A stretch of 64,000 nt of DNA from Candidatus Omnitrophota bacterium (GCA_022710715.1 JAKLGJ010000001.1:490041-554040); one strand, 5' to 3'. Positions 1,839-44,612 are shown, counted from the first letter of the stretch. Numbers and translations are program-made. The notes: generated by a model not told the origin, from the letters alone.

Positions 1839-2078
1839 TTATCCTCTTGCCGCGCGGTTCCCAATAGATTCTTGCCCTGTTTTTTCGATTCCATGGTGTT
1901 AGAAGACACTTTTTGCTTGATCCAGGTTTCGATGTATTTCTTGTGGAATCTCCAGTCAGTTCCGATTTTAAAAGCAGGAATTCTTCCTTCGCGCGCATAG
2001 CGATGCACGGTAAGAGGGTGAATGTGCAGGTAATCGGCTACCTCTTTTGCTGTAAGAATCTCGTTGCTTTTGGACATA
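1835..2078 (-). CDS. excisionase-family (HTH_17/MerR-superfamily) DNA-binding protein
   Basis: LTAKEVADYLHIHPLTVHRYAREGRIPAFKIGTDWRF HTH. Start chosen at MSKSNEIL (ATG ~2078) with GGTGGTGA RBS; alternative upstream starts at 2098/2143. Confidence 0.6.
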
Positions 2079-2280
2079 CTCACCACCTTTTTTGACATGT
2101 CTACGATAATCATATGTATACAGATAAAATTATGATTTGTCAAGATAAATTTATCACAATAGTGGGCTTAAGAGGCTCCAGGAAAGACAAACCGGGTTCT
2201 GCAAGCTTGGGATGCGGCTTGAGAACCCGGCCTGTGCTACTTCTACCCTGAAGGTGCCGGGAAAGGGTTAAGAATGGTCT

Positions 2281-3252: not shown

Positions 3253-3277
3253 GTCCTCCGCATTTTCATCACAGGTG

Positions 3278-4018
3278 TTATTCCACGCCGTCGTGGATCA
3301 GCTTGAGTCCTTTCAGGGTCAGGTCCATATCTATGGTGGTAAAGCGCCGGCAATAGGGCGCGATCAGTTTGATGTTGCCGCCGGTGCCGATAACGGGTGC
3401 GGCGGTTCCCAGGAGTTTCCTGATCCGTGCGGTCAGTTCGTCTGTCAGAGCGGCGTAACCGTAGACGATCCCGCTTAACATGCTGTTGGCGGTGTCGCGG
3501 CCGATAAATTCTTCAGGTTTTTTAAGCAGGATCTTCGGCAGCAGAGCGGTTTTTTCTTCGAGGGTTTCCAGCGAGATGCGCATTCCGGGCAGGATCAACC
3601 CTCCGAGGTATTCTTTCCTGCGGGAGATCAGGTCGAAGGTGATCGCGGTGCCGAAATCGACTACTACTGCCGGCGCGCCATACAGCTTGACTGCGGCATA
3701 AGCGTTGACCAGGCGGTCCTGGCCGACCTGTTCGGGAAAACGGTAGTTGTTCTTGATCGGGACCTGAAGATTGCCGCCCAGGAAGTGCACTCTGGCGCCG
3801 GAGAAGTGTTTGAGCTCTTTTTTGAGGGCTTGCGTGGCGGCGGGCACTACGCTGGAGATGATGACCGCGTCAATGGGGCTACGGCGGAAAAGTTTGGCCA
3901 GGCACTGTCCGTAACGCAGCGGGTATGTGGGAGCGCTTGCGCGGGAAACCGGCCGGTTGTTTTTCTTGAAAATGCCGAAAGTAAGATTAGAGTTGCCTAC
4001 GTCAATCGCCAGTAGCAT
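3278..4018 (-). CDS. coaX: type III pantothenate kinase
   Basis: MLLAIDVGNS N-terminus and acetate/sugar kinase fold motifs (VVDFGTA, GTGG). Confidence 0.85.
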   Translation of the reverse strand: MLLAIDVGNSNLTFGIFKKNNRPVSRASAPTYPLRYGQCLAKLFRRSPIDAVIISSVVPAATQALKKELKHFSGARVHFLGGNLQVPIKNNYRFPEQVGQDRLVNAYAAVKLYGAPAVVVDFGTAITFDLISRRKEYLGGLILPGMRISLETLEEKTALLPKILLKKPEEFIGRDTANSMLSGIVYGYAALTDELTARIRKLLGTAAPVIGTGGNIKLIAPYCRRFTTIDMDLTLKGLKLIHDGVE

Positions 4019-6958: not shown

Positions 6959-9743
6959 GTTTCACCGCCTTTAGTTTGATGAGGGTTTCTTTCAGTTCCG
7001 CAAGCCGCTGACGCTCTTTTTCCACGACTTCCGCAGGCGCTCGCTCCACGAACGATGTATTGGCAAGGGTGTTCTCTTTGGCCTTGACGTCGGATTCCGC
7101 TTTTTTGATCTTTGCGTCGATCTTTGCCTTTTCTTTTTCCACGTCCACCACACCCTCCAGTGAAAGGGAAATATGCACATCGGATACGACGCTGGTGACA
7201 GTCGATTTCCGATGTTCCAGTTTTTCCTGCACGGCGAGAGTACCCAGCCGGCAGAGATAGCCGATGTGGCCTGATGCGTGTTCGATAAGTTCGCGCTTGG
7301 GTTTGGTGGCCGCAGCCACGACGGCATGTAAGTGCTGGGTGGGCAGGATTTCCAGGTCCGCGCGCATGTTCCTGATCGCGGTGATCACTTCAAGGATCAG
7401 CGCCATCCGCTGCTCGGTTTTCTTATCGATGAGCTGTTCCTGCAGATGCGGCCAGGATTGTTGCATGATCAATCCTTCCGACGGCTTCAGGCGCGACCAG
7501 ATTTCCTGGGTGATGAACGGCATGAACGGCTGGATTGCGCGCAGGAATTTCTCCAGCACCTTGAACATGATCAGCTGGTTTTCCGGCTGCTTGATCTCGG
7601 GCTTGATGATTTCCAGGTACCAGTCGCAGAATTCATGCCAGAAAAAGCGGTACAGCAGGTTTGCCGCTTCGTTGAATTTATAGGTCTCAAGGTTTTTGTT
7701 GACCTCTTTAAGCGTGGAGTAGAGCCGGCTGATGATCCAGCGATTGACCAGGCTCATCTGTTCATTTTTGAACGTCAGGCACAGGTCGCGGTTTACCTGG
7801 CTGTTGTCCAGGTTCATCATCACGAAACGCGAGGCGTTCCATATCTTGTTCGCGAAATTCCTGCCCTGCTCGAAACGCTCTTTGTTCAGGAAGACATCCT
7901 GGCCCTGCGCCGTGATCGAGATCAGGCTGAAACGCAGAGCGTCGGTGCCGTATTCATTGATGATCTCCAGCGGGTCGATAACGTTGCCCAGAGACTTGGA
8001 CATTTTTTTCCCTTCTATATCACGCACGGTGCCGTGAATATAGACGTCCTTGAAAGGAATATCGCCCATGAATTCGAATCCGGCCATGATCATGCGCGCC
8101 ACCCAGAAAAAGATGATTTCCGGCGCCGTGACCAGCGCTGAGGTGGGATAGAAGAATGCGAGTTCCTCCCGGACATCGTGATCGATCCCCTGCGCATCCT
8201 TGTGCGTTTGTTTCGGCCAGCCGAATGTGGCGAACGGCCAGAGCCAGGAGGAAAACCACGTGTCGAGCACGTCTTCATCCTGGTATATATCCGTCGCTCC
8301 GCAGTGCGGGCAGGCGGCGGGTTTGACCGCAGCTACGATCAGTCCGGGGATGTGTTGTTTTTCGTGCTTGATGTTTTTTTTGCCGGTTGCCGCTGTCTGC
8401 GCCGGGCTGTCCACGCTCGCCGGTTTATAACAGGCGCGGCAATAATAAACCGGGATGCGGTGTCCCCACCATATCTGGCGCGAAATGCACCAGTCCTGAA
8501 TATTGTTCATCCAGTTCAAGTAGACTTTGGTCCAGCGTTTGGGGTAAAAAGAGATGCGGCCGTCTTTGACCGCGGCGATTCCGGGGACAGCCAGCGGTTT
8601 CATACGCACGAACCATTGTTTGGAAAGATACGGTTCGATGATGGTGTGACAGCGGTAGCAATGCCCGGCGGATAATGCATGCGGTTCGATCTTTTCCAGC
8701 AACCCCTTTTCTTTCAGATCTTCGATGATCACTTCCCTGGCTTCGAAGCGGTCCATGTCTTTGTACTCGCCGCCGTTTTCATTGATCCGCGCGTCCGGAT
8801 GCAGCACGTTGATGAACGCCAGCGCGTGCTTTTTTCCGGTCACGTAATCGTTGGGATCGTGCGCGGGAGTGATTTTTACGCAGCCGGTGCCGAAAGCCGG
8901 ATCGACCATGTCGTCGGCGATCACCGGGATCTCCCGGTTCATCAGAGGCAGGAGCAGGGTTTTACCAACGATTTTCTTATAGCGCTTGTCTTTGGGGTTG
9001 ACCGCCACCGCGGTGTCGCCGAGCATGGTTTCGGGCCGCGTGGTGGCTACGATGACGTATTCATCGGGCGCGTCTTTAAAAGGATAACGCAGAAAATAAA
9101 GATTTCCCTGCAGGTCGCGATGCGGTGCTTCTTCGTCCGCCAGCGCGGTCTGGCAGCGGGGGCACCAGTTGATGATGTAATTGCCCTGATAGATCAAACC
9201 TTTTTCGAAGAGGCGGATGAAGACTTCCTTGACGGCTTGCGAATAATCTTCGTCCATGGTAAAGCGTACTCTGCGCCAATCGCAGGAGGCGCCGAGTTTC
9301 TTTAACTGCCGGATGATGGTCGAACCGTACTCTTCTTTCCACCGCCAGACTTCTTCCAGGAATTTGTCGCGGCCCAGGTCCTGGCGTTTCCTGCCTTCTT
9401 TGCCGAGCTTGCGTTCCACCACGTTCTGGGTGGCGATGCCGGCGTGATCGGTTCCGGGCATCCACAACGGCTCAAAGCCTTTCATGCGGTGGAAGCGGAT
9501 GAGGATATCCTGGATGGTGTTGTTCAGAGCGTGGCCCATGTGCAGGATGCCGGTGACATTGGGCGGCGGAATAACGATGGTGAACGGTTTCTTCCCCGGG
9601 GTAACGGTCGCGTTAAACGCGCCCGCGTCCGACCAGGCCTGGGACCACCTGTCTTCTGTTTCTTTGGGAGTATATGCTTTAGCGAGTTCGGTCAAGGTTG
9701 TGTTTTCCTGAATGTCGGTAAAGGGGACGTTTTTTTTCGCCAT
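6945..9743 (-). CDS. valS: valine--tRNA ligase
   Basis: HMGH (PPNVTGILHMGHALN) and KMSKS (KMSKSLGN) class I motifs plus C-terminal coiled coil. Start approx (MAKKNV; ORF-caller TTG at ~9773); 5' end overlaps cimA 3' end. Confidence 0.95.
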   Translation of the reverse strand: MAKKNVPFTDIQENTTLTELAKAYTPKETEDRWSQAWSDAGAFNATVTPGKKPFTIVIPPPNVTGILHMGHALNNTIQDILIRFHRMKGFEPLWMPGTDHAGIATQNVVERKLGKEGRKRQDLGRDKFLEEVWRWKEEYGSTIIRQLKKLGASCDWRRVRFTMDEDYSQAVKEVFIRLFEKGLIYQGNYIINWCPRCQTALADEEAPHRDLQGNLYFLRYPFKDAPDEYVIVATTRPETMLGDTAVAVNPKDKRYKKIVGKTLLLPLMNREIPVIADDMVDPAFGTGCVKITPAHDPNDYVTGKKHALAFINVLHPDARINENGGEYKDMDRFEAREVIIEDLKEKGLLEKIEPHALSAGHCYRCHTIIEPYLSKQWFVRMKPLAVPGIAAVKDGRISFYPKRWTKVYLNWMNNIQDWCISRQIWWGHRIPVYYCRACYKPASVDSPAQTAATGKKNIKHEKQHIPGLIVAAVKPAACPHCGATDIYQDEDVLDTWFSSWLWPFATFGWPKQTHKDAQGIDHDVREELAFFYPTSALVTAPEIIFFWVARMIMAGFEFMGDIPFKDVYIHGTVRDIEGKKMSKSLGNVIDPLEIINEYGTDALRFSLISITAQGQDVFLNKERFEQGRNFANKIWNASRFVMMNLDNSQVNRDLCLTFKNEQMSLVNRWIISRLYSTLKEVNKNLETYKFNEAANLLYRFFWHEFCDWYLEIIKPEIKQPENQLIMFKVLEKFLRAIQPFMPFITQEIWSRLKPSEGLIMQQSWPHLQEQLIDKKTEQRMALILEVITAIRNMRADLEILPTQHLHAVVAAATKPKRELIEHASGHIGYLCRLGTLAVQEKLEHRKSTVTSVVSDVHISLSLEGVVDVEKEKAKIDAKIKKAESDVKAKENTLANTSFVERAPAEVVEKERQRLAELKETLIKLKAVKHALE

Positions 9744-11298
9744 CTTTGAGGAGCTTGTATTCGATGCTGTCAAGCAGCGCCTGCCAGGAGGCTTCGATGA
9801 TATTTTCCGAGACGCCGATCGTGTTCCAGGAGTTTCTGCCGTCCTGGGACTGGACCAGTACGCGCACGCGCGCGGCGGTGCCGGGTTTGTCGTCCAGCAC
9901 GCGGACTTTGTAGTCCGATAACCGCATTTCTTTCAGCGACGGGTAGAATGCTTCCAGCGCTTTGCGCAGGGCGGTATCGAGCGCGTTGACCGGGCCGTCC
10001 CCGTCTGCCGCAGTGTGCTCGATTTTATCATTGACCTTGATCTTGATGATGGCTTCCGTGGTAACTTTGCGGTTTTTCTCCTTGTTGACCACTACCCTGA
10101 AATTCTGCAGGCTGAAGAACTCTTTGACCCCGGATAAGGCCCGCTTGAGGATCAATTCAAAAGAAGCTTCAGCGGCTTCGAAATGGTAGCCTTTCATCTC
10201 CAGCGATTGCAGGAGCGCGTGCGCCTTTCTGGTTTTGGGATCGTCCTTGGTCAGGTCAAGGTTCATATCTTTGGCCATGAGCAGGATACTGCTCTTTCCC
10301 CCTAATTCGGACAAGAGGATCCGGCGCTTATTACCGACCGCTTCAGGCTGGATATGTTCGTAGGAATCCGTGGCTTTCATTACCGCGTTGATATGCACGC
10401 CGCCTTTATGGGCAAAAGCGGAATCGCCGACATACGGCTGGTTGCTCATATGCCGGACGTTACTGATCTCACTGACGAAATAAGAAGCCGCGGACAATTT
10501 TTTCAGGTTTTCCGGCGGTATGCAACGCATGCCCAGTTTCAACTGTAGATTGGCGATGATCGGGATGAGGTCAGCGTTGCCGCAGCGTTCGCCGTAACCG
10601 TTCATCGTGCCCTGGACCATGTCGCAGCCGGCTTCCACGGCAGCGATGGAGCTGGCTACCGCCACTCCCGCGTCGTTGTGGCAATGGATGCCCAGCCTGA
10701 CCCGTAATTTTGTTTTGAGCTCTCTGACGATTGCGCTGATCTGGCCGGGCAGCGTGCCGCCGTTGGTGTCGCAAAGGATCAGGCAGTTTGCACCGGCTTC
10801 CTGCGCCGTCACCAGACATTCCAGAGCATACGCCGGGTTATCTTTGTACCCGTCGAAAAAGTGCTCTGCGTCATAAAAGACGGTAACACCGTTGGCTTTA
10901 AGGAAGCTCACGCTGTCTCCGATCATCTTCAGGTTTTCTTCAGGCGTGGTGCGCAGGACGTCTTTGACATGGTAGAGCCAGGATTTGCCGAATATGGTGA
11001 CGACTTTGGCTTTGGAAGCGATCAGTTCCTGTAAGTTCCTGTCTTTGGACGCGGCGATATCCGGCCGGCGGGTTGAACCGAAAGCGACGATAACGCTTCT
11101 ATTCAGGTTCTTTTTCGCCATTTTGGCGAAGAATTGAGCGTCTTTAGGATTTGACCCGGGCCATCCGCCTTCGATAAAAGCGACGCCCAGCTCATCGAGT
11201 TTTTCGGCGATCCGGATCTTATCCATCAGGGAATAGGCGATCCCTTCTCCCTGGCTTCCGTCACGTAATGTCGTATCGTAGGTAATGATCTGGCGCAT
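9679..11298 (-). CDS. cimA: (R)-citramalate synthase (LeuA/CimA family, Geobacter-type)
   Basis: YDTTLRDGSQ, IEGGWPGSNPKD motifs and C-terminal LeuA-dimer regulatory domain. Confidence 0.7.
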   Translation of the reverse strand: MRQIITYDTTLRDGSQGEGIAYSLMDKIRIAEKLDELGVAFIEGGWPGSNPKDAQFFAKMAKKNLNRSVIVAFGSTRRPDIAASKDRNLQELIASKAKVVTIFGKSWLYHVKDVLRTTPEENLKMIGDSVSFLKANGVTVFYDAEHFFDGYKDNPAYALECLVTAQEAGANCLILCDTNGGTLPGQISAIVRELKTKLRVRLGIHCHNDAGVAVASSIAAVEAGCDMVQGTMNGYGERCGNADLIPIIANLQLKLGMRCIPPENLKKLSAASYFVSEISNVRHMSNQPYVGDSAFAHKGGVHINAVMKATDSYEHIQPEAVGNKRRILLSELGGKSSILLMAKDMNLDLTKDDPKTRKAHALLQSLEMKGYHFEAAEASFELILKRALSGVKEFFSLQNFRVVVNKEKNRKVTTEAIIKIKVNDKIEHTAADGDGPVNALDTALRKALEAFYPSLKEMRLSDYKVRVLDDKPGTAARVRVLVQSQDGRNSWNTIGVSENIIEASWQALLDSIEYKLLKDGEKKRPLYRHSGKHNLDRTR

Positions 11299-11329: not shown

Positions 11330-12547
11330 TCAGCCTAACCCGAATTCCTTATGCAGCATCTTGACTGCGGTTTCTCCGAATTTTTTCTTAATGATACAGG
11401 AAATACTGATGTCCGATGTCGAGATCATTTCGATATTGATTTTGTTGTCTGCCAGGGTGCCGAACATCTTGGCGGCAACGCCGGGATGGGATTTCATGCC
11501 GATACCGACAATGCCGACCCGTGAGATGTCGTCGTCAAGCACCACGTCTCCCGCGCCGATGTCACTGGCGATCTTCTGGGTGAGTTTCACCGCTTTGGCG
11601 CACTGCGCTTTTCCCACGGTGAATGAAATGTCGGTTTTCTTGGTATGGCTGACGTTCTGAACGATCATATCCACGTTCACGCCGCCGTCGGAAAGGTTCT
11701 GGAACAGGTCGGCTGCCACGCCGGGTTTATCCGGGACGTCGCAAACGGTGATCTTGGCTTCGTTTTTATTCAAAGTGACTCCGGTAATCAATGCCTCTTC
11801 CATTCTATTGACCTCCTTGACGATCATGGTTCCCGGGTTTGTGGAAATCGAAGAGCGGACGTGCAACGGAACATTGAATTTCTTTGCGACTTCGATGGAA
11901 CGCGCCTGCATGACCTGCGCGCCCAGCGAGGCCATTTCCAGCATTTCATCGAAGGTGATCGCTTTGAGTTTTTTTGCTCTGGGTTCGATGCGCGGGTCGG
12001 TGGAATAAATGCCTTCAACGTCCGTGTAGATCTCGCATTCGTTCGCCTGCAGCGCAGTGGCCAGCGCGACTGCGGTCAGGTCGCTGCCGCCGCGGCCGAG
12101 CGTGGTGATGTTGTGGTCCATGGTTACGCCCTGGAAGCCGGCAACGATCACGATTCTGCCTCTTTTGATCTGCTCGCGGATGCGTTCGGCGTTGATCTTG
12201 ATGATGCGCGCTTTGGTATAATTAGCGTCGGTAATGATGCCGACTTGCGCCCCGGTGAAAGAAATCGCCTCAAAACCGAGTTTGTGAATAGCCATGGCCA
12301 GCAGGGCCACGGAAATCTGCTCTCCGGTGGATAGGAGCATGTCCATTTCGCGCTCTTCCGGCTCGGGATTGATCTGATTCGCCAGCTCGAGTAGTTCGTC
12401 CGTGGTGTCTGCCATGGCTGAAACCACTACCACCAGATCATGCCCTTCTTTTTTATAACCGATCACGCGTTTGGCCACGTTCTGTATGCGTTCCACATTC
12501 GCTACCGATGAACCGCCGAATTTCTGAACAATGAGTTTCTTTGCCAT
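11330..12547 (-). CDS. lysC: aspartate kinase
   Basis: KFGGSSV nucleotide-binding N-terminus, tandem C-terminal ACT domains. Start trimmed to MAKKLIVQKFGG. Confidence 0.9.
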   Translation of the reverse strand: MAKKLIVQKFGGSSVANVERIQNVAKRVIGYKKEGHDLVVVVSAMADTTDELLELANQINPEPEEREMDMLLSTGEQISVALLAMAIHKLGFEAISFTGAQVGIITDANYTKARIIKINAERIREQIKRGRIVIVAGFQGVTMDHNITTLGRGGSDLTAVALATALQANECEIYTDVEGIYSTDPRIEPRAKKLKAITFDEMLEMASLGAQVMQARSIEVAKKFNVPLHVRSSISTNPGTMIVKEVNRMEEALITGVTLNKNEAKITVCDVPDKPGVAADLFQNLSDGGVNVDMIVQNVSHTKKTDISFTVGKAQCAKAVKLTQKIASDIGAGDVVLDDDISRVGIVGIGMKSHPGVAAKMFGTLADNKINIEMISTSDISISCIIKKKFGETAVKMLHKEFGLG

Positions 12548-12622: not shown

Positions 12623-13015
12623 CTACTTATTACGCATGTACGATATCCCGACGCGGTATCGTTCTTCAGTTTCCAGTTTCCTGCAGTATGCCACTTTGCC
12701 TTTGACTTTACCGGCTTCCTTGTAATCGGCGAAAGGGAATTTGATCAATAATCCCACGACGCCCTCAATCTGTTTGTTGCAGTTGAAGGCGATGCCCCCC
12801 ATATTGATATCATCGATGACATATTCGGTTTCGCCCGCAAGTTCCGCCGGCGAGGTGATTCTGCAGGTCATCTGCTTGTCTTGCGGAATCCTGATGCGCA
12901 GCCAGCGTCTTCTTTTGAGCCGCAGTTTTTTCTGCCATTCCTGCAGGAGCGTAAACAAAACAAGGCTTACCAGGATAGCTACCAGCACTCCCAACAGCAC
13001 AAGCACGTTTTTCAT
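12623..13015 (-). CDS. PilZ domain protein with N-terminal TM helix (c-di-GMP receptor-like)
   Basis: RRRWLRIR (RxxxR) and DDINMGGIAF (DxSxGG-like) PilZ motifs; hydrophobic N-terminus. Confidence 0.65.
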   Translation of the reverse strand: MKNVLVLLGVLVAILVSLVLFTLLQEWQKKLRLKRRRWLRIRIPQDKQMTCRITSPAELAGETEYVIDDINMGGIAFNCNKQIEGVVGLLIKFPFADYKEAGKVKGKVAYCRKLETEERYRVGISYMRNK

Positions 13016-13039
13016 GAACCTTTCCTCCGGATTGGTGTC

Positions 13040-14245
13040 TTAGGCGGAATCTGATTTAATGAAAAATTCCATCAGCTGGTGTCCCTGTTCGAATATCAAA
13101 TCGGATTTTTCTGCTTCTTTCTCGCTGTAACCGGCGAAACCCCGCCCCGTTATTCCTTTGCCGAATATCCCGAAACAGATCGGGTCGGCGGTGTGGGTTC
13201 TTAACGGGATCGGCGTCGCATGGTCGGGCAATACCAGAATCCTGAAATTGCGGTTGTTCTTAAAGGCTTCGAGTATCCCGCCGACTATATACTGGTCAAA
13301 ACGCTCTATAGCCAGGATCTTTTCGCGCAGGTCGCCGTTGTGCCCTGCTTCGTCCGGCGCTTCGACATGCACGAAAACGAAATCCTTCTTTTCGAGAGAT
13401 TTGATCGCGGCTATCGCTTTGCCTTCATAATTGGTATCGTAATACCCGGTTGCCCCGGGTACATTGATGACTTCGAGCCCGATCATTTTGCCAAACCCTT
13501 TGATCAGGTCTACCGCGGAAATAACGCTGCCGTTGAATCCGAATTTTTCCTGAAAGCTCGGTAATCGGGGTTTCTTCCCCTGTCCCCACAGCCAGATCAT
13601 ATTCGCGGGGTTTTCTTTCAGGTCCACGCGGACGTGATTGATCTCCTGCTCTTCCAGTACCGACCGGGAGGCCTGCATCAGGTCCAACAGCGTTTGCGCG
13701 TTCTTGCCCGCGGGTAAATGATCTTTGATCTTCTTCCCCAGGATATCGTGGGGCGCGGTGCAGGCTACCTGATCCAGCCCCTGCAGCACGCCGTTCTTAA
13801 CCAGCAGGAGATGCCGGTAGCTGATCCCCGGGTAAAATTTAAACCGCTCGTTGCCCAGTTTCTCGTCAATCGCTTTGATCAATTGCGCGGCTTCTTTCGA
13901 ACTGATGTGCCCGGCGCTGTAATCCTGCATGGCCTCGTCGGCGATCGTGACCAGGTTGCAGCGGAAAGCCACGTCATTCTCTTCCAGAACGACGCCGAGA
14001 TTCTCCGCTTCCAGCGGCCCGCGGCCCGAATAATACGTTCTGGGATCGTAGCCGAGAATAGACATATTGGCTACATCCGACGCCGGGGTCATCTTTTCCG
14101 GGACAGTGCGGATCTTGCCCAGGCGGCCGTTGCGGGCGATAAAGTCCATATGCGGGGTGCGCGCGGTCTCCAGCGGAGTCCTGCCTCCCAGTTCTTCTAT
14201 GGGGTAATCTGCCATCCCGTCGCCGACCAAGACGATATATTTCAT
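13040..14245 (-). CDS. apgM: 2,3-bisphosphoglycerate-independent phosphoglycerate mutase, archaeal-type
   Basis: MKYIVLVGDGMAD N-terminus and ApgM/metalloenzyme-superfamily pattern; 401 aa. Confidence 0.8.
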   Translation of the reverse strand: MKYIVLVGDGMADYPIEELGGRTPLETARTPHMDFIARNGRLGKIRTVPEKMTPASDVANMSILGYDPRTYYSGRGPLEAENLGVVLEENDVAFRCNLVTIADEAMQDYSAGHISSKEAAQLIKAIDEKLGNERFKFYPGISYRHLLLVKNGVLQGLDQVACTAPHDILGKKIKDHLPAGKNAQTLLDLMQASRSVLEEQEINHVRVDLKENPANMIWLWGQGKKPRLPSFQEKFGFNGSVISAVDLIKGFGKMIGLEVINVPGATGYYDTNYEGKAIAAIKSLEKKDFVFVHVEAPDEAGHNGDLREKILAIERFDQYIVGGILEAFKNNRNFRILVLPDHATPIPLRTHTADPICFGIFGKGITGRGFAGYSEKEAEKSDLIFEQGHQLMEFFIKSDSA

Positions 14246-14883
14246 AATCCCGTGACCGTTTGTACCAGCGCTTCTATAACCGCGTTTTTGGAATTCAGTT
14301 TTTCAGACACTCCTGAAATCGTCACCAGCCAGGCTGCGTACCGGCCTTTGTGCGCGGTATTCGCCACCACCATATCCAGTTCAGCTGTTTCGAGCAATTC
14401 CTGCGCCCGCTTGATCAGTATCGCTTGCGCGGCGCCCGGCTCGAATTTGAAGCCTACCGCGAAACTCTGGCTGGCGAAACGGCTGATACGCGCGATCAGC
14501 TTGGGCGTTCTCACCAGCCGCAGCGTCAACTCCGGGCGGTCGGATCTTATTTTATTCACCGCTGTCGCCGCAGGTTTGTAATCCGAAACCGCGGCGGTAT
14601 GGATTACCGCGTCGTACTTTTTCTTCAGCTCCGCGTCAAAGAGTCGGGCAAGCTCGTCAAAAAAACGGAATCGCCGCAGGGTAATACCGGCGAACGTCGC
14701 CGGGGGTTGCTGCGCAGCGGCCGGTCCGAGCAAGAGCGTCACCCGGCAACCGGTCTGCGCCAATCGGCGCGCCAGGGTTATCCCGGTTTCTCCGGATCCG
14801 GTGTTGCTGATGACGCGCACCGGATCAATGGCCACCCAGGTCGGCCCTGCGGTGATAAGGATTCTTTTCGCGCGTCGGTTCAT
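14242..14883 (-). CDS. coaB: phosphopantothenate--cysteine ligase (stand-alone CoaB domain)
   Basis: ILITAGPT...ISNTGSGETG CoaB signature; no CoaC flavoprotein domain in the ORF. Confidence 0.75.
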   Translation of the reverse strand: MNRRAKRILITAGPTWVAIDPVRVISNTGSGETGITLARRLAQTGCRVTLLLGPAAAQQPPATFAGITLRRFRFFDELARLFDAELKKKYDAVIHTAAVSDYKPAATAVNKIRSDRPELTLRLVRTPKLIARISRFASQSFAVGFKFEPGAAQAILIKRAQELLETAELDMVVANTAHKGRYAAWLVTISGVSEKLNSKNAVIEALVQTVTGL

Positions 14884-15951
14884 CTAAAGGCCGATTTCCG
14901 CCAGGATAGCCTTGAGTTCAGGCTTGACCACTTTCGGTTCCTGAACGGATTTGATCGCTCTATCCGGGTCTTTGAGCCCGTGGCCGGTCAGGATACAGAC
15001 GATTTTCCTGTTGCCGGGATCGCTGGAAGCGAAAAAACCTGTTTTGATCAATTTAAGCAGCCCGGCAATCGACGCGCAGGAAGCCGGCTCGGCGAATACG
15101 CCTTCTTTGACCGCCATAAGCTTATAGGCGTCGATAATTTCATTGTCTGAAACGCAGTCGATCAGGCCGCCGGATTCATCGCGGGCCGCCTCCGCCTGTT
15201 TCCAGCTGGCCGGATTGCCGATGCGTATGGCCGTAGCAATGGTCTCGGGATCCTTGATCGGGTGTCCCCGTACGATCGGAGCCGCTCCTTCCGCCTGAAA
15301 ACCCAGCATTCTCGGCAGATGTTTGATCCTGCCGGCCTGCTTATATTCTTTGTAGCCTTTCCAGTAGGCGGTGATGTTGCCGGCATTGCCGACAGGTATG
15401 ATATGGAATGACGGCGCGGTTTCCAGCGCGTCGCAAATTTCAAAGCTGCCGGTTTTTTGACCTTCGATGCGGAAAGGATTAAGCGAATTGACCAGCGTGA
15501 TCGGGTATTTTTGAGTGATTTCCTTTACCAGGTCCAGCGCCACGTCGAAATTTCCGTTAACCTGCAGCACGATTGCCCCGTGTATCAGCGCCTGGCTCAA
15601 TTTGCCCAGAGCGATGTGGCCGTTGGGGATCAGTACCACGCATTTAAGCCCGGCTTTAGCCGAATAGGCTGCCGCGGAGGCCGAGGTGTTTCCGGTAGAC
15701 GCGCAGATGACCACTTTGCTTTTTTCTTCGCAGGCTTTAGAGATAGCCATGGTCATCCCCCGGTCCTTGAATGAACCGGTGGGATTGAGTCCCTCGTATT
15801 TAAGATACACCTGCCATCCCGCGCCGACCAGGGAGCTCAAATGCGGCGCCAGGATCAGCGGGGTGTTGCCTTCGTTAAGGGTCACCACCGGCGTTGTATC
15901 GGTTACCGGCAGATACGTCCTGTAAGCGTTAATCAGTCCTGTGTAATGCAT
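14884..15951 (-). CDS. thrC: threonine synthase
   Basis: PLP-dependent fold type II; GNPTGSFKDRG Lys motif. Confidence 0.9.
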   Translation of the reverse strand: MHYTGLINAYRTYLPVTDTTPVVTLNEGNTPLILAPHLSSLVGAGWQVYLKYEGLNPTGSFKDRGMTMAISKACEEKSKVVICASTGNTSASAAAYSAKAGLKCVVLIPNGHIALGKLSQALIHGAIVLQVNGNFDVALDLVKEITQKYPITLVNSLNPFRIEGQKTGSFEICDALETAPSFHIIPVGNAGNITAYWKGYKEYKQAGRIKHLPRMLGFQAEGAAPIVRGHPIKDPETIATAIRIGNPASWKQAEAARDESGGLIDCVSDNEIIDAYKLMAVKEGVFAEPASCASIAGLLKLIKTGFFASSDPGNRKIVCILTGHGLKDPDRAIKSVQEPKVVKPELKAILAEIGL

Positions 15952-15953
15952 AG

Positions 15954-17249
15954 TTAAATATCTTCGATCCGTATCGCTACCGAGGGTTCGTGAATAATGT
16001 TCATCTTGTCGATAATCGCCAGCGCGGTGCGCAGGTCTTTTTCTTTCGCTTCGTGAATGACCATGACAATGGGCACGCTTTTGGCGCGGCGACGCTCTTT
16101 CTGGGTGACCGAAGCGATGCTGATCGAATACCTGGCCAGCACGCCGGCGATCTTGGCCAGCACGCCCGGTTTATCCTGCGCCATGAAACGGATGTAGTAA
16201 CGGGATTCGATCTCGTCGATCTTCCGCAGTTTCTTGACAGAAGTATCTTCTATGACATTCAACGTGGGACGAAACAGTCCGGCTTTGATGCCCTGGGTAA
16301 GATCGACCAGGTCCGAGACGACCGCCGAAGCCGCGGACAGCTGGCCTGCCCCCGGGCCGAAGAAAAGCAGGTTGCCGGCCAGGTCGGAAGCGACATGCAT
16401 GGCATTGTTGACGCCATTGACGGAAGCCAGCAAATGCTCCGTGGGTATCAGGGTGGGATGCACCCTGACTTCCAGGCTATCCTCCTCTTTCTTGGCGATC
16501 GCCAGCAGTTTTATCTCGAAGCCGAGCTCTTTAGCGTAGTTGATATCGTAGAGCGAAACCCGGGATATCCCTTCGATAAATACGTCGTCCAGGCTGATCA
16601 ACCTGCCGAATCCCAGGTAGGTCAGCAGGACCAGTTTATGCGCGGAATCGATCCCTTCGATATCCAGCGTGGGGTCTTTTTCGGCGAATCCTTTTGCCTG
16701 GGCTTCTTTCAGGGCTTCGTTGAACGAACAGTTGTCATCGGACATCTTGCTTAGCACGAAATTCGACGTGCCGTTGACGATGCCGAAAATGCTGGAAAAT
16801 TTATTGGCCACCAGACCTTCGCGCAAGGCTTTGATAATAGGGATGCCGCCGCCCACGGAAGCTTCGAAATAAATGCTCTTGCCGTTATCGATCGCGGTGG
16901 CGAACATCTCTTTACCGTGTTCGGCCAGCAGCGCTTTGTTGGCGGTGACGATGTGTTTGCCTTTTTTGAGCGCTTGGCTGATGAACTCTTTGGCCGGATG
17001 GATACCGCCGATAAGCTCTACGATCACATCGATCTGGGGATCGTTGATGACCGCAGCAACGTCTGCAGTGAGCAGTTCTTTGGGGACGGCGACGTTGCGG
17101 CGGGAGGCCAGATCCTTGTCGCAAATCTGCTTGATGATCAGTTCGGTGCCGATCTTGTCGGCAAGCATTTTCCTGCGTTCCCGCAGGATCCTGACCACGC
17201 CGGAACCGACCGTGCCGAATCCGATAATGCCGATATTGATCTTTTTCAT
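15954..17249 (-). CDS. hom: homoserine dehydrogenase
   Basis: IGIIGFGTVGSGV Rossmann motif, catalytic domain, C-terminal ACT domain. Confidence 0.9.
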   Translation of the reverse strand: MKKINIGIIGFGTVGSGVVRILRERRKMLADKIGTELIIKQICDKDLASRRNVAVPKELLTADVAAVINDPQIDVIVELIGGIHPAKEFISQALKKGKHIVTANKALLAEHGKEMFATAIDNGKSIYFEASVGGGIPIIKALREGLVANKFSSIFGIVNGTSNFVLSKMSDDNCSFNEALKEAQAKGFAEKDPTLDIEGIDSAHKLVLLTYLGFGRLISLDDVFIEGISRVSLYDINYAKELGFEIKLLAIAKKEEDSLEVRVHPTLIPTEHLLASVNGVNNAMHVASDLAGNLLFFGPGAGQLSAASAVVSDLVDLTQGIKAGLFRPTLNVIEDTSVKKLRKIDEIESRYYIRFMAQDKPGVLAKIAGVLARYSISIASVTQKERRRAKSVPIVMVIHEAKEKDLRTALAIIDKMNIIHEPSVAIRIEDI

Positions 17250-17614
17250 GACGTCGGCTTCTTGTCTTTGTTTACGTAATACCCGACCGTCTTGCTGATG
17301 ATGCTGCGATGATTTTCGTCGATCGCAAGGAATTCGAGCCGGGTATCATAGATGAGGTCTTTGGTGATCTCTGTCGATTCGATGACCTTGCCGATCATCA
17401 TGATGGGGTTGCGTTCGAACGGAAGGCGTATTTCGATGGCAAGGTGCATGCCCGATTCGAACTTGCGGCTGGTGGTCAACAACATACCTCCCAGGCTCAT
17501 GTTCTTTGTCTGGGTAATGTCGGTGTTGTTGATCTCGTCGAGAACGCGATAGGAAACAATGAAGTTAGCCCTTATTCGGTCGCTTTTGCGTCTTTCTACT
17601 CCCTGATAGCCCAT
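17246..17614 (-). CDS. PilZ domain protein
   Basis: RRKSDRIR (RxxxR) and DITQTKNMSLGGMLL (DxSxGG) motifs; 122 aa. Confidence 0.65.
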   Translation of the reverse strand: MGYQGVERRKSDRIRANFIVSYRVLDEINNTDITQTKNMSLGGMLLTTSRKFESGMHLAIEIRLPFERNPIMMIGKVIESTEITKDLIYDTRLEFLAIDENHRSIISKTVGYYVNKDKKPTS

Positions 17615-17975
17615 AATGCTCCTCCTTCTTGGTCAACACCCAGGCGATATATGTGCGCAGCATGCGTAGCGCTTTGTCTGTCACGTGTATGAAAGCTACT
17701 CCCGTCAGATGCGCTCCGGACAGCGTTTTTTGCGACGTTACCACGGTGCCCTGTAACTGCAGCGTCTTGCGGGGAGTATGAGAAAGAAATAACCGCATTC
17801 GAAGCGTTTGTTTGGCGGTAAGTTTTTTTTCCGTCAGGATGCAGATACCCGCTTCGCTTAAGTTCAGTATCGGTGAATCCATCCACGACGCCTTGAGTTC
17901 GTTCCCTCTGAAGGAACACACCGCGGTAATGGATTTTTTTATCCTGAATGATTCCCGTTTTTCCTTCTGCACCAT
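17565..17975 (-). CDS. PilZ-like domain protein
   Basis: KRESFRIKK...ILNLSEAGICIL PilZ-like motifs. ORF-caller N-terminus (MARALEWGSRGHRFKSCRPDH) is translated tRNA-Pro and was trimmed to MVQKEK. Confidence 0.5.
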   Translation of the reverse strand: MVQKEKRESFRIKKSITAVCSFRGNELKASWMDSPILNLSEAGICILTEKKLTAKQTLRMRLFLSHTPRKTLQLQGTVVTSQKTLSGAHLTGVAFIHVTDKALRMLRTYIAWVLTKKEEHYGLSGSRKTQKRPNKG

Positions 17976-18003
17976 CGGGTGATTTCCCGCCTGTAGTTGT
18001 ACA

Positions 18004-18081
18004 TGGTCGGGGCGACAGGACTTGAACCTGTGACCTCTTGAACCCCATTCAAGCGCTCTAGCCAAACTGAGCCACGCCCCG
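18004..18081 (-). tRNA. tRNA-Pro (anticodon GGG), CCA encoded
   Basis: Cloverleaf read directly: acceptor CGGGGCG/CGCCCCG, D-loop with GG, anticodon loop AUGGGGU, T-loop TTCAAGT, discriminator A + CCA. Confidence 0.9.
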
Positions 18082-18086
18082 TAAAT

Positions 18087-19088
18087 TTATTCCGCTTTTT
18101 TCTGCCGGGTCATCAGATCCACGACGGCGGCATGCGGAGATTTATTCTTATAAAGAACGAGATATACTTCGCGCGTGATCGGCATATCTACTTTGTGTTT
18201 GATGCTTAAAGCGTAGGCTGATTTTGCCGTCGGCACGCCTTCCGCGACCATATCCATATGGGAGAGCACTGTCCGGGGAGATTCCCCTTTGCCGATCTGC
18301 TCGCCCACGAACCGGTTGCGGCTGTGCGCGCTGAAACACGTGGTGACCAGGTCTCCCAGCCCGCTGATCCCGCTGAACGTTTTAGCTACGGCTCCCAGGG
18401 TGTGTCCCAGCCGGGAGATTTCCGCCAAACCCCTTGAAAGCAACGCCGCTTTAGTGTTGCTGCCGAAACCCAATCCGTCGGCAATCCCGCAGGCGATGGC
18501 GATTACGTTTTTCAGGCTGCCGCCGATTTCAGCCCCGATGACGTCGTCGGAGGTGTAGATCCTGAACCGGTCAGTCATGAATATATCCTGCAGGTGTTCC
18601 CGGACGCGCTTGTTGTGCGAAGCGATGACCGCGGTCGTCGGGATGCCTGCCGCCACTTCCGCGGCAATCGTCGGCCCGGATAAAACGCCCAGGTGCAGGG
18701 AACCCAGTTCTTCATGGATGATCTCGGAAATGCGCTTGAGCGATCCGATCTCTATTCCTTTGGTCACGCTGACAAACAACGCCTGTTTCGGATGCCCCGC
18801 TTTTTTCAGCCTGCGGAGAATCCCGCGGATATACTGCGACGGGATGGCGATGACGATGATGGTTTTACCGGCCACCGCACGGTCCAGATCCGCGGTTATA
18901 TCTATCTGCCCGGGTATGGCAAAGCCCGGCAGGAATTTAGCGTTGAATCGTTTCTTGTCCAGCACGCGGGCATACTCGGGAAACGCGCTCCAGAGGCTTA
19001 CCGAAAAACCTTTGCGCGCCAGCAGGATCGCCAGCGTCGTTCCCCACCCTCCGTCCCCTAATACGGCAATCGCGGTTTTCTTGGCCAT
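18087..19088 (-). CDS. gpsA: NAD(P)H-dependent glycerol-3-phosphate dehydrogenase
   Basis: IAVLGDGGWGTTLA Rossmann N-terminus and GpsA catalytic region. Confidence 0.9.
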   Translation of the reverse strand: MAKKTAIAVLGDGGWGTTLAILLARKGFSVSLWSAFPEYARVLDKKRFNAKFLPGFAIPGQIDITADLDRAVAGKTIIVIAIPSQYIRGILRRLKKAGHPKQALFVSVTKGIEIGSLKRISEIIHEELGSLHLGVLSGPTIAAEVAAGIPTTAVIASHNKRVREHLQDIFMTDRFRIYTSDDVIGAEIGGSLKNVIAIACGIADGLGFGSNTKAALLSRGLAEISRLGHTLGAVAKTFSGISGLGDLVTTCFSAHSRNRFVGEQIGKGESPRTVLSHMDMVAEGVPTAKSAYALSIKHKVDMPITREVYLVLYKNKSPHAAVVDLMTRQKKAE

Positions 19089-19091
19089 GGT

Positions 19092-19478
19092 TTAATGTTT
19101 ATCCATGAAATGGATCCTGGGGTAAATATTGGTCAGGTTCTTTTCTTCGCGCGTAATGATGTTGATGCCCACGTCGAATGTCCCGTCGTCTTTGCCTTCG
19201 ATGCGCACGACTTTGCCGACGATACCGTTCTGGTAGACGAAACTGGTTTTATCCATATCCTGGCAGAACGACAGGTCGCTCTTATTGAATGAGAGCCAGA
19301 GAATATCGTCCATGTTCACTTTGTCTTTGATGTTGCACAACAGGCCGTTCTGGCTGACATTGACCGTGTATCCCTCGAAAAGTTTGGTCAGGGTCTCCTT
19401 TTTGCAGATCTTGTACGCCAGCGGCGTGATCAAGGGCAGACGGGGGAATTCCCTGCGTTCGCTACCGTTTTTATCCAT
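19092..19478 (-). CDS. PilZ domain protein
   Basis: RREFPRLPL (RxxxR) and TVNVSQNGLL (DxSxGG-like); 128 aa. Confidence 0.6.
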   Translation of the reverse strand: MDKNGSERREFPRLPLITPLAYKICKKETLTKLFEGYTVNVSQNGLLCNIKDKVNMDDILWLSFNKSDLSFCQDMDKTSFVYQNGIVGKVVRIEGKDDGTFDVGINIITREEKNLTNIYPRIHFMDKH

Positions 19479-19491: not shown

Positions 19492-20247
19492 TCAGACGAT
19501 CGTTTGGTGCGTCTTGTTGGTGCGCAATTTCGCCAGCTCCCAGCTGTATTCGTACAGGTGCAATCCTTTGCTCATTGCGACGATCTCGCCGTCCTCGACG
19601 CCGATTTCGTCAGCCATGTATTTCTTTACCAGCTGCAGCCCTCCCAGGTTGGACGGAAATCCTCCCCAGAGATCCCAGGAGCGGAAATAAAGATAGAAAT
19701 GCAATTTACCGTAGCGCACCCGGGTATCGATCAACCGCAGGCACGGCGGATCGGTCAGCTTGATGTCCGAGGGCATGCCGATCTCCATGATCGCCTGGTT
19801 GGTGCCGAAGCCCTGGGTTTTGTAAATCTTGATCACCTCTTCGACCTGGTTGCAGTCCAGGGGCATCTCCTGGATCATTTCTTTGCCTGCGGCATTCTTC
19901 TGCTTGATCCTGACTTTCGGCTCGACCAGCCGTTCGCCGTAGGTGTAATCTTCGGTTTCGGTCTTGGTTCCGGTGAGCAGATAACTTAAGTAGCCCTGGA
20001 TGTACTCCATGTCCGTAGGCGCCGGGATGTTCATGCCTTCAGGAATGATCGGGATGATCTGATGAGCGGGATGCTTGACGCGAATGACCGCCAGATCGAA
20101 TTCCAGGCGGCGCTGTCCCTCATAACTGCCCCGGGTAATGGTATAAACATGCCCCTTGTCCAGGATGCGGCTCAAGGTTTGGAACCAGGCGTCATCCAGG
20201 TCGAATGAATCGATAAAAACCGGTTCGAGGAACTCTTTTTCGGACAT
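19492..20247 (-). CDS. thyA: thymidylate synthase (ThyA) family protein, divergent/archaeal-like
   Basis: PPCLRLIDTRVRYGKLHFYLYFRSWDLWGGFPSNLGGLQL aligns to ThyA [41 protein letters not shown] including the catalytic Cys. ORF-caller N-terminus overlaps tRNA-Gly; start set to MSEKEF (alternative 20280). Confidence 0.55.
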   Translation of the reverse strand: MSEKEFLEPVFIDSFDLDDAWFQTLSRILDKGHVYTITRGSYEGQRRLEFDLAVIRVKHPAHQIIPIIPEGMNIPAPTDMEYIQGYLSYLLTGTKTETEDYTYGERLVEPKVRIKQKNAAGKEMIQEMPLDCNQVEEVIKIYKTQGFGTNQAIMEIGMPSDIKLTDPPCLRLIDTRVRYGKLHFYLYFRSWDLWGGFPSNLGGLQLVKKYMADEIGVEDGEIVAMSKGLHLYEYSWELAKLRTNKTHQTIV

Positions 20248-20292: not shown

Positions 20293-20366
20293 TGGAGCGG
20301 GAGAAGGGAATCGAACCCTCATATATAGCTTGGAAGGCTATTGTTCTACCACTGAACTACTCCCGC
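20293..20366 (-). tRNA. tRNA-Gly (anticodon UCC), CCA encoded
   Basis: Acceptor GCGGGAG/CTCCCGC, D-loop AGTGGTA, anticodon loop CUUCCAA, T-loop TTCGATT. Confidence 0.9.
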
Positions 20367-20934
20367 AAACTTGTTCGCGCGCCGGCATAAAAAGCCGTTT
20401 CGCGTTGAAGAAAATTCTTATGAGCGCGATGCTCATCAGCTCCCAATAGGGCGTGGTAATCAGCGGTTTGGACCAGGCATATTCGATGAATAATGAGAGC
20501 GCGATTACCACCAGCCACAGGCAGATGCCCGCGATTCTATAGGTTTTTTCAACCGCCGGGCGTTGAGCTTTATTCACCAGGTACAGCAGCGCCGCCGCAG
20601 TTACGGGAGCAAACAGTAAATGGATCCAGAAACTGTTTGCCGGGCTGGAGGGCCTGACCGGTCCGAGTAAAAGCGCCATCGCGATCAAAAGGATGTACGG
20701 CCCGCGCAGTCGTTCCGATCTCGTTCTCACATACGCGAAATCAACTGCCATAAAAAGAAAGAGCGATGCGATTAACCATTCGCTGCCGTTAATCCAGATT
20801 CTGTTTATCTGGAACTTGTCGGCCCATGCTGCAATCGTGGGCCAGAGTTTGGTGAAGAAAAAACGCGCCAGGATCGCGTACAACGCCACGATAAAAGCGT
20901 AGTATGCAGCACGCACCCACAGGTCTTTTCTCAT
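20338..20934 (-). CDS. hypothetical polytopic membrane protein
   Basis: 198-aa ORF with about 6 hydrophobic segments, between tRNA-Gly and tRNA-Tyr; 3' end overlaps tRNA-Gly by ~29 nt. Confidence 0.4.
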   Translation of the reverse strand: MRKDLWVRAAYYAFIVALYAILARFFFTKLWPTIAAWADKFQINRIWINGSEWLIASLFLFMAVDFAYVRTRSERLRGPYILLIAMALLLGPVRPSSPANSFWIHLLFAPVTAAALLYLVNKAQRPAVEKTYRIAGICLWLVVIALSLFIEYAWSKPLITTPYWELMSIALIRIFFNAKRLFMPAREQVCGSSSVVEQ

Positions 20935-23224: not shown

Positions 23225-23974
23225 TTAGCCTTTTTCTTTCAGTATGTCTTTGAGCTTTACCAGCAGTTCTTCTTTGCTCAAGTCTTTATACAATTTTGAT
23301 TCAAAGACCAGGGAGATGTCATGGCGTTCTTCGGAAACGATAATGATCAGCGCGTCGGTTTCTTCGCTCAATCCGATGGCTGCCCGGTGTCTGGTGCCGA
23401 ACGCCCGGCTTAATTCCTGGTTCGCGGTTAAGGGGAACAGGCAGCCGGCTGCAGCGATCCTGCCGGCCTGGACGATCACCCCCCCGTCATGCAGTAAACT
23501 GTTGGGAGTGAAGATGGTCTGGATAAGATCGGACGAGACGTTGCTGTCGATAAGGTCCCCGGTTTCGATGTATGGTTTGAGCGGGTCGTTCTTTTCGATG
23601 GCGATGAGCGCGCCGACCCTGTTCTTGCTCAACGTTTCCACGGCAGAGCATAATTCAGTGAGTATCTGGTCGAGCTCCTGCTCTGCCAGCACCGTCTTGA
23701 AAAGGTGCTGTTGGCCCAGTCGAGCCAGCCCCTGACGGATTTCGGGTTGAAATAGGATCAGGAACGCCAGCATTGCCAGTGCGAAGAGTTTGGTCATCAG
23801 CCATTCCAGGACTCCCAGTTGCAGCTGTTGTATGACGAAAAAAGCCACCAGCAGGATGATCATGCCGCGCAATACCTGAATGGCGCGCGTGCCTTCGAAG
23901 AACAAAAGTATGTGGTAGATGACAAACCAGAGTATGCAGATTTCCAGCGCCGTTTTAAGATGCAATACCGTCAT
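23225..23974 (-). CDS. cdaA: diadenylate cyclase (c-di-AMP synthase), membrane-anchored
   Basis: N-terminal TM helices plus DAC-domain motifs DGGVIV and RHRAAIGLSE. Confidence 0.85.
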   Translation of the reverse strand: MTVLHLKTALEICILWFVIYHILLFFEGTRAIQVLRGMIILLVAFFVIQQLQLGVLEWLMTKLFALAMLAFLILFQPEIRQGLARLGQQHLFKTVLAEQELDQILTELCSAVETLSKNRVGALIAIEKNDPLKPYIETGDLIDSNVSSDLIQTIFTPNSLLHDGGVIVQAGRIAAAGCLFPLTANQELSRAFGTRHRAAIGLSEETDALIIIVSEERHDISLVFESKLYKDLSKEELLVKLKDILKEKG

Positions 23975-40995: not shown

Positions 40996-41120
40996 ACTAT
41001 CCCTCCTTGTAAAAGTATTGTATCGGCGATTGGGGAGTAAGTCAAGTCAAGAAATTAGTGGACAAATCGGGCAGAATAGGTACAATAACATCATTGATTT
41101 TACGAAAGGAGCAATGCGCA

Positions 41121-44428: not shown

Positions 44429-44612
44429 AATATATATACCCGTGGGCTTGAAATCTGTACATTTTGTGTTATACTTAAAGTGTAATAAGCGAACTTTGAC
44501 AGATCAGTTCCTACTGATAAAGGCTAACTAGCAGTAATGCTGGGGCGCAAAGCGACAGTTCTTCTGTTTGTGCAGAAGAAGGCTGCGTTACCAAAGAGGA
44601 CGTATTCCTGAA

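Follow-up and report, generated by a model that had tools for sequence, protein, structure and literature searches.

Single-domain PilZ proteins are the most abundant receptors for the second messenger cyclic diguanosine monophosphate (c-di-GMP), and to our knowledge most of them have no known partner and a gene context that is rarely informative. What, then, do four such proteins do when their genes lie among those of core biosynthesis? This question is raised by a 64,000-nucleotide stretch of DNA from a Candidatus Omnitrophota bacterium (GCA_022710715.1 JAKLGJ010000001.1:490041-554040; hereafter the window, to which all coordinates refer unless a related locus is named), a member of an uncultured and often host-dependent phylum. 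A first-pass annotation had reported four small PilZ open reading frames (ORFs), here called P1 to P4, in a block of genes on one strand that includes lysC, hom-thrC, a tRNA-Pro gene, gpsA and thyA. We confirmed both these neighbours and the coordinates of the four ORFs, all of which lie on the minus strand:

12623..13015, minus strand: P1, a membrane-anchored divergent PilZ protein of 130 residues, encoded between an apgM-like gene and lysC.
17246..17614, minus strand: P2, a core single-domain PilZ protein of 122 residues, matched by Pfam PilZ.
17565..17975, minus strand: P3, a fast-evolving extra PilZ paralog of 136 residues, encoded 29 nucleotides past the tRNA-Pro gene.
19092..19478, minus strand: P4, a core single-domain PilZ protein of 128 residues, encoded between thyA and gpsA.

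We conclude that P1 to P4 are genuine single-domain PilZ proteins that represent four old and distinct families. We further consider it probable that these families bind c-di-GMP and serve as small trans-acting adaptors, and that the locus is not a signalling island.

Three of the four proteins exceed the gathering score of the Pfam PilZ model (PF07238; 22.5 bits). P3 scores best at 45.5 bits (E 9.8e-12), followed by P2 (36.0 bits, E 9.5e-9) and P4 (31.5 bits, E 2.4e-7). P1 alone falls slightly under the cut-off (20.0 bits, E 9e-4), and its assignment is supported otherwise. An exhaustive search recovered a P1 family of 21 representatives; among its 18 aligned members, 14 match Pfam PilZ at E <= 0.01 (best E 3.8e-10), and comparison of the P1 family with the P2 family by hhalign gave a probability of 93% (E 3.5e-7). 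The AlphaFold model of P1, with a predicted local distance difference test (pLDDT) value of 91.9, comprises a six-strand barrel and an N-terminal helix at residues 2-35, a hydrophobic anchor that agrees with the transmembrane helix reported at first pass. The best Protein Data Bank (PDB) matches to this model in Foldseek are the PilZ domains of BcsA, PlzA, Alg44 and MotI. Based on the family matches, the hhalign comparison, the model and the Foldseek results, we conclude that P1 is a membrane-tethered divergent PilZ protein.

The P2 model (pLDDT 66.8) contains strands and a C-terminal helix at residues 100-116, and residues 1-17 are disordered (pLDDT < 50). Nearly all of its top 40 Foldseek matches are PilZ proteins, the best of which include 5vx6 (E 7e-6), 5y6g, 4rt0 and 4xrn, and the fold resembles the PilZ domains of MotI, YcgR and Alg44. 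A beta-barrel of the PilZ type is thus present in both P1 and P2, the two proteins that were modelled. A sequence search of the PDB with the P2 family profile returned nothing at E < 0.1. We found no specific NCBIfam family for any of the four proteins, and the Myxococcus paralogous PilZ family TIGR02266 (cut-off 68.7) gave 28.9 bits for P2, 28.5 bits for P3 and no match for P1 or P4. Pairwise identity among the four does not exceed 26%, and BLAST E values are above 0.1. NCBI already labels P2 and P4 'PilZ domain-containing protein'. Taken together, the coordinates, the motifs described below and the evidence from fold and family uphold the four ORFs as single-domain PilZ genes. The density that had drawn attention to them is also real, as PilZ outnumbers every other Pfam family in the window (63 ORFs); its four members all lie inside 7 kb, and the 10-kb flanks on either side contain no additional one. 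However, these are not similar paralogs, and P2 and P4 are old single-copy fixtures of their operons.

Many P2 and P4 orthologs of 117-139 residues carry a more specific JGI name, 'c-di-GMP-binding flagellar brake protein YcgR'. The resemblance is to the PilZ fold, and 5vx6 (MotI), 5y6g and 5y6f (YcgR) are among the best structural matches to P2. However, YcgR and MotI (DgrA) are two-domain proteins of about 210-250 residues with an N-terminal PilZN (YcgR_N) domain, whereas P1 to P4 have a single domain and 122-136 residues. The P2 and P4 orthologs span 116-139 residues, start-codon miscalls aside, and do not have the two-domain form of YcgR. Because the N-terminal domain of YcgR is absent, we consider the YcgR name an over-annotation.

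The ligand-site motifs of PilZ, RxxxR and D/N-x-S-x-x-G, take the form RRWLR and DINMGG in P1, RKSDR and NMSLGG in P2, RESFR and NLSEAG in P3, and REFPR and NVSQNG in P4. The second motif is canonical in P2, P3 and P4; in P1 its serine is replaced by asparagine, and distant members of the P1 family carry a canonical DISPGG. RxxxR occurs in 120 of 120 P2 orthologs and in 117 of 120 P4 orthologs. Within the P2 set, R9, R13, N/D38, G42 and G43 are each present in all 120 proteins, and position 40 is serine in 70, cysteine in 27 and glycine in 22. Within the P4 set, R13 is found in 119 proteins and N/D40, S42 and G45 in 120 each, with R9 invariant or nearly so. With their binding motifs intact, the proteins are credible c-di-GMP receptor candidates, as had been proposed at first pass, and they likely bind this ligand. 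The residue that precedes RxxxR, which decides between monomeric and dimeric c-di-GMP, with Arg or Lys leading to the dimeric form (rule cited in 10.1101/2020.02.11.943704), is Arg or Lys in all four proteins, and for this reason c-di-GMP would probably be bound as an intercalated dimer. In such a complex, the ligand would be gripped by a flexible N-terminal (R/K)RxxxR loop together with the D/N-x-S-x-x-G strand.

The same motifs bear on a different possibility, namely that the PilZ fold was kept and ligand binding lost, as in proteins of the PA2960/XAC1133 type. In P1 and its close relatives, the serine of the second motif has given way to asparagine, and 50 of 120 P2 orthologs have cysteine or glycine there; such replacements could lower affinity. 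Single-domain PilZ proteins that do not bind are also known in large clusters; however, these clusters are marked by defective RxxxR or D/NxSxxG motifs (10.1101/2020.02.11.943704), whereas both motifs are present and conserved in the P2 and P4 families. The full N/D-x-S-x-x-G motif is found in 120 of 120 P4 orthologs, and both motifs of P3 are canonical. Furthermore, the RxxxR loop lies within the disordered residues 1-17 of the P2 model, where its invariance is hard to explain without a ligand, which suggests that ligand binding is the best explanation for its conservation.

Two further features of the window concern cyclic dinucleotides:

44512..44596, plus strand: c-di-GMP-I (GEMM-I) riboswitch aptamer, RF01051, 63.1 bits against a gathering score of 35.
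23225..23974, minus strand: cdaA, membrane-bound diadenylate cyclase, TIGR00159, 242 bits.

The presence of a c-di-GMP-I riboswitch in the genome indicates that the organism uses c-di-GMP and speaks against a loss of binding. By contrast, the window and its 10-kb flanks (~84 kb) held no GGDEF, EAL or HD-GYP gene in a search that used regular expressions on the window and Pfam on large unannotated proteins, with the flanks included, and this lack of a c-di-GMP turnover gene is what proteins blind to c-di-GMP might lead one to expect. On balance, we regard a loss of ligand binding in these families as improbable, and the proposal at first pass that the PilZ paralogs were repurposed as generic adaptors is disfavoured in this c-di-GMP-blind form, given the RxxxR counts and the invariant glycine of the second motif. 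The accompanying proposal of heavy cyclic-dinucleotide control goes beyond the evidence, with no GGDEF, EAL or HD-GYP gene in the ~84 kb searched. It had drawn in part on cdaA at 23.2-24.0 kb, which is indeed present; however, this gene belongs to a separate conserved run of housekeeping genes, ftsH-folP-cdaA-pdxJ-acpS-nnrD, with a variable region between that run and the PilZ genes, and we rejected a functional link, which leaves the proximity a coincidence.

Downstream of the riboswitch are an 88-residue ORF (44722-44988) and a 308-residue secreted protein with a signal peptide (45256-46182), neither of which matches Pfam. In one related locus (L104), a protein that reads from its sequence as GAF plus HD-GYP-like (HHHEKYDGTGYP) is encoded at 1950-3032 on the plus strand, 5 kb upstream of the P2 ortholog and hom, and it is a candidate c-di-GMP phosphodiesterase within the clade. 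GGDEF domains have been described in Omnitrophota, as have frequent small pilZ genes next to giant genes (10.1101/2023.11.21.568195). The latter resemble P1 to P4 in that they belong to the same phylum and are small, stand-alone PilZ ORFs, sometimes several in a row, but they follow genes for giant secreted proteins and sugar transporters (10.1101/2023.11.21.568195), whereas P1 to P4 lie in operons for threonine, glycerol-3-phosphate and thymidylate.

The genes of the block are transcribed in the order thyA-like, P4, gpsA, tRNA-Pro, P3, P2, hom, thrC, CoaB-like, apgM-like, P1 and lysC, and then cimA and valS. The neighbours of the PilZ genes are as follows:

19492..20247, minus strand: divergent thymidylate synthase gene (thyA-like), PF00303, 41.3 bits; ends 13 nucleotides before P4.
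18087..19088, minus strand: gpsA, NAD(P)H-dependent glycerol-3-phosphate dehydrogenase, NF000942, 416.5 bits; starts 3 nucleotides past the P4 stop.
18004..18081, minus strand: tRNA-Pro (GGG), found by ARAGORN and Rfam; parts the thyA-P4-gpsA unit from the PilZ-hom unit.
15954..17249, minus strand: hom, homoserine dehydrogenase with a C-terminal ACT domain, NF004976, 533.6 bits, and Pfam domains.
14884..15951, minus strand: thrC, threonine synthase, TIGR00260, 334 bits.
14242..14883, minus strand: stand-alone CoaB-like gene (DFP C-terminal domain), PF04127, 143 bits; closes the tightly packed PilZ-hom-thrC unit.
13040..14245, minus strand: apgM-like gene, TIGR02535, 561 bits (cut-off 446.3), and NF003242, 576 bits.
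11330..12547, minus strand: lysC, aspartate kinase with ACT domains, NF005155, 604.6 bits; 405 residues from an ATG start.

We examined the position of P2 in 92 related loci. The P2 family alignment, used to scan metagenomes, yielded 80 of them, and another 8 came from genomes and 4 from context look-ups. Both hom and a P2 ortholog occur in 86 loci, and the other six end less than 160 nucleotides past P2. In all 86, hom lies directly downstream of the P2 ortholog, with a gap of at most 4 nucleotides in 63 loci and a 4-nucleotide ATGA overlap in 21. The window has the overlapping form, in which the TGA stop of P2 overlaps the ATG of hom, and upstream of the P2 ATG, within the 3' end of P3, is AAGGAGG, a strong Shine-Dalgarno sequence. 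Clustered by Hom identity, the P2-hom loci form 58 groups at 95% and 23 at 80%, with a G+C content between 35 and 58%. Relatives are collinear over the whole block, and the junctions differ in how often they are interrupted. Insertions were found between nnrD and thyA in 29 of 30 loci, between the DFP-domain (CoaB-like) gene and apgM in 13 of 35, between apgM and lysC in 13 of 26 and between gpsA and the PilZ genes in 9 of 63. Among the relatives examined, no insertion was found between PilZ and hom, between thyA and P4, between P4 and gpsA, between hom and thrC or between thrC and the DFP-domain gene, the last of these junctions being uninterrupted in 46 loci. In 58 of 59 loci, the PilZ genes are separated from gpsA by the tRNA-Pro gene. 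In L104, the P2-hom pair is intact although everything upstream is different: gpsA and tRNA-Pro are absent, and a gene for an ExeA-like ATPase lies on the other strand.

The P2 family is correspondingly large. Its homologs form 720 clusters, and the top 120 are 66-86% identical to P2 and 116-125 residues long; those of the 120 that have a source name are nearly all from Omnitrophota or Omnitrophica, with one from Deltaproteobacteria. An alignment of P2 with 20 orthologs contains 43 invariant columns in 122 residues. In a more distant Omnitrophota metagenome-assembled genome (MAG; L015, Hom 57% identical), an ORF with a NYN domain lies upstream of hom-thrC and there is no PilZ gene, and the hom loci examined outside Omnitrophota also have none, which suggests that the P2-hom arrangement is specific to a clade and that the clade is large. 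Median identity to the window protein is 68% for P2, 72% for Hom, 66.5% for GpsA, 67% for CimA, 60% for P4, 45.5% for P1 and 30% for P3. P2 evolves about as slowly as Hom by this comparison, and the values indicate that P2 and P4 are core genes under strong constraint.

P4 homologs form 192 clusters of 58-73% identity and share a conserved C-terminal TREEKNLT-IYP stretch. The P4 gene stands between thyA and gpsA in 45-50 loci and is absent from two (L072 and L106), and in relatives its stop mostly overlaps the gpsA start. P1 is less widely held, being present in 9 of the 26 loci that have both the apgM-like gene and lysC; from this distribution, we read it as a sub-clade addition between those two genes.

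P3 differs from the others, and a search of 5.8 billion proteins for its homologs returned only P3 itself. This result, together with its omission from the NCBI annotation and a PilZ copy number between gpsA and hom that ranges from 1 to 3 (one gene in 40 loci, two in 12 and three in 7), might be taken to mean that such ORFs arose by chance, or that a single PilZ gene underwent recent local amplification or mobile insertion. However, P3 outscores the other three in Pfam, and relatives identified by position in related loci are 22-37% identical to it and number 0-2 copies upstream of P2. In L027, for example, the P3 counterpart is 35% identical, as against 83% for P2. Recent tandem amplification is rejected by the low identity of the four paralogs to each other, and a mobile or foreign island by the flat base composition across the region and the collinearity of the block in relatives. 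Hundreds of P2 and P4 orthologs moreover occupy fixed positions. This origin is contradicted for P1, P2 and P4, and for the set as a whole we consider it very improbable; P3 is, from its sequence divergence and position, a fast-evolving accessory copy. The GenBank annotation of the same locus (GCA_035453765.1, L002) omits P3 and instead calls a 47-residue ORF on the opposite strand at 9633-9776, and the gene calls of JGI and ENA include P3.

The overlap between P3 and P2, reported at first pass as ~50 nucleotides in different frames, is exactly 50 nucleotides (17565-17614). In close relatives, the TGA of the P3-like gene overlaps the ATG of P2 (...GGAGGAACTCCATGACC). The corresponding junction in the window reads ...GGAGGAGCATTATGGGC, in which TGA has become TGG, and the DNA alignment shows a further 1-nucleotide difference slightly upstream. 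As a result of the TGA to TGG change, P3 runs 50 nucleotides further to the next stop, ~15 residues beyond the end of the domain. The alignment indicates that the 50-nucleotide overlap is a species-specific by-product of an ancestral 4-nucleotide overlap and not a designed feature.

How might PilZ proteins act from these positions? MapZ (PA4608) with CheR1, HapZ with SagS and N5MapZ (XAC3402) with HemK are pairs in which a PilZ adaptor docks onto an enzyme or kinase in a c-di-GMP-dependent manner (PMC11250160). The proteins of the window are like these adaptors in a length of ~110-135 residues, a PilZ barrel as the only domain, an N-terminal RxxxR loop, a C-terminal helix and canonical forms of both motifs, and the P2 model can be superposed on a c-di-GMP-bound PilZ domain from P. 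aeruginosa (4xrn; template modelling score about 0.62-0.74). They are unlike them in that no sequence relationship extends beyond the domain and in that P2 and P4 are fixed in biosynthetic operons across the clade. By analogy, we infer an adaptor mode of action, in which PilZ adaptors would dock onto partner proteins via conserved C-terminal surfaces, and we infer that the conserved columns outside the ligand site of P2 and P4 may form the partner-binding surface.

The placement of the genes suggests how such adaptors would be made. P2 would open a PilZ-hom-thrC-coaB-like operon as its first cistron, and P4 would lie in the middle of thyA-PilZ-gpsA. A scan for promoters and terminators over 9-24.5 kb was not above shuffled sequences (promoters 7 against 10.9; terminators 28 against 20.4), so the transcription units are drawn from spacing only. 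The tight packing of both units, by overlaps or gaps of a few nucleotides, is consistent with translational coupling. Since P2 and P4 are fixed as tightly packed cistrons, the receptors would be synthesized constitutively, in step with housekeeping enzymes.

A narrower form of this explanation, and not an exclusive alternative to it, is that the PilZ proteins serve specifically to regulate metabolism. In this view, P2 (perhaps joined by P3 and P1) would be the regulatory partner, dependent on c-di-GMP, of Hom or the threonine branch (lysC, hom, the proposed homoserine kinase and thrC), with GpsA or ThyA as the partner of P4, such that the supply of amino acids and phospholipid precursors is gated. 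The adjacency of P2 and hom in 86 of 86 loci, mostly by overlap or a gap of at most 4 nucleotides, its survival of the upstream rearrangement in L104 and the Hom-like rate of P2 all fit this idea, as does the placement of three of the four PilZ genes next to genes of the threonine pathway, the TIGR02535 'proposed homoserine kinase' among them. In a crude mirror-tree analysis of 28 loci, P2 correlated most highly with Hom (partial r 0.40; other genes -0.06 to 0.21) and P4 with GpsA (0.35). However, unrelated pairs reached values as high or higher (Hom-GpsA 0.51, ThrC-GpsA 0.47), and unrelated genes of the block are joined by junctions that are equally tight and conserved. L015 has hom-thrC without PilZ, and neither a PilZ-Hom fusion nor a link in the literature was found. 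N5MapZ-HemK offers a precedent for a PilZ adaptor that controls an enzyme (PMC11250160). Given the evidence on both sides, we consider it less likely than not that P2 and P4 are such dedicated partners.

Genomic position also has a counterexample. The founding pilZ gene of Pseudomonas aeruginosa (PA2960) is a small PilZ gene among unrelated core genes in a housekeeping operon (tmk-holB-pilZ), and its product acts on the pilus ATPase PilB; thus, position need not reveal the target. The motifs for c-di-GMP binding, retained in P1 to P4, are missing from PA2960, which does not bind the ligand. Within the window, tight packing is common to unrelated neighbours, as in thrC-coaB-like, pdxJ-acpS-nnrD and lysC-cimA-valS, and for this reason the packing says little about partners. 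It is possible, although the smaller share of our expectation, that the co-translated enzymes are the partners; we give more weight to partners encoded elsewhere, with operon membership for expression only. Direct control of the neighbouring enzymes by the PilZ proteins is doubtful, and we think it unlikely that P2 is a c-di-GMP-sensing regulatory subunit of Hom or the hom-thrC branch and that P4 likewise controls GpsA or ThyA. Returning to the explanation that we favour, in which P1 to P4 are c-di-GMP-binding adaptors from four distinct families, several observations weigh against it: the equally tight packing of unrelated genes, the moderate confidence of the P2 model, the replacement of the second-motif serine in P1 and in many P2 orthologs, and the lack of GGDEF, EAL and HD-GYP genes in the window and its flanks. 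We nevertheless consider it the probable explanation.

The remaining genes of the block vary in how well they are defined. The identity of citramalate synthase (cimA) was confirmed by NCBIfam and Pfam. For a threonine operon, lysC, hom and thrC are clear, asd is outside the block, and the kinase step is represented only by the TIGR02535 match. The apgM-like protein passes the models for both 'proposed homoserine kinase' (TIGR02535) and cofactor-independent phosphoglycerate mutase (NF003242); the block has no canonical thrB, and the apgM-like gene may be the missing homoserine kinase. In the CoaB-like gene, TIGR00521 covers the CoaB half only and all NCBIfam matches are under their cut-offs, and the real activity of its product is uncertain. 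This gene evolves fast (median 45% identity in relatives), yet it is always joined to thrC. The thyA-like gene is under the cut-off of every NCBIfam thymidylate synthase model, including TIGR03283 (97.6 bits against 174.55), a methanogen-type model. Divergent as it is, it is the most strongly conserved gene of the block when relatives are compared (median identity 82%). The locus recurs as exact copies in metagenomes from anaerobic digesters (JGI 3300010429, 1.62-Mb contig) and in GCA_035453765.1. Judged by Hom, the nearest genomes are MAGs of Candidatus Omnitrophota, with 70-76% identity.

Other observations concern the surroundings of the block. Insertions are concentrated in the interval from nnrD to thyA. 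In the window, this interval contains three tRNA genes and an ORF for a 198-residue multi-pass membrane protein (20338-20934, minus strand) that has no Pfam match; in L025, a PAS histidine kinase and a response regulator (1654-3505, plus strand); and in L023 and L026, a PDDEXK_5 gene. Further along the window, three pseudopilin-like genes with an N-terminal methylation motif occur amid genes for very large proteins (40375-40995, 46557-48141, 41058-44363 and 49717-55867). The very large proteins (1101, 1006 and 937 residues) have almost no domain matches, the 1006-residue protein matching phage T4 Gp30.7 at 34 bits, and the region may correspond to the locus for a pilus or a type II secretion-like system that has been described in Omnitrophota. 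Between 9000 and 26000, long ORFs of up to 287 residues lie antisense to real genes on both strands (e.g., 13718-14581 and 14350-15150, both plus strand); these are unsupported and look like by-products of composition and codon usage.

For the databases, these results call for two corrections, as the P2 and P4 orthologs are not YcgR and P3 is missing from the GenBank annotation. In the literature that could be searched, we found no report that couples PilZ genes to hom or gpsA, or that describes this arrangement in Omnitrophota. Across no fewer than 58 lineages, two new orthologous PilZ families are joined to hom and gpsA, an association that opens a possible connection of c-di-GMP with core metabolism to testing. 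If an interaction of P2 with Hom or of P4 with GpsA is absent, the locus would serve as a warning, like Pseudomonas pilZ, that PilZ genes may reside in housekeeping operons for expression only. If P2 and P4 do control these enzymes, a second messenger of biofilm and lifestyle would directly throttle the synthesis of aspartate-family amino acids and the supply of phospholipid precursors, which would represent a previously undescribed mode of c-di-GMP control over central biosynthesis.

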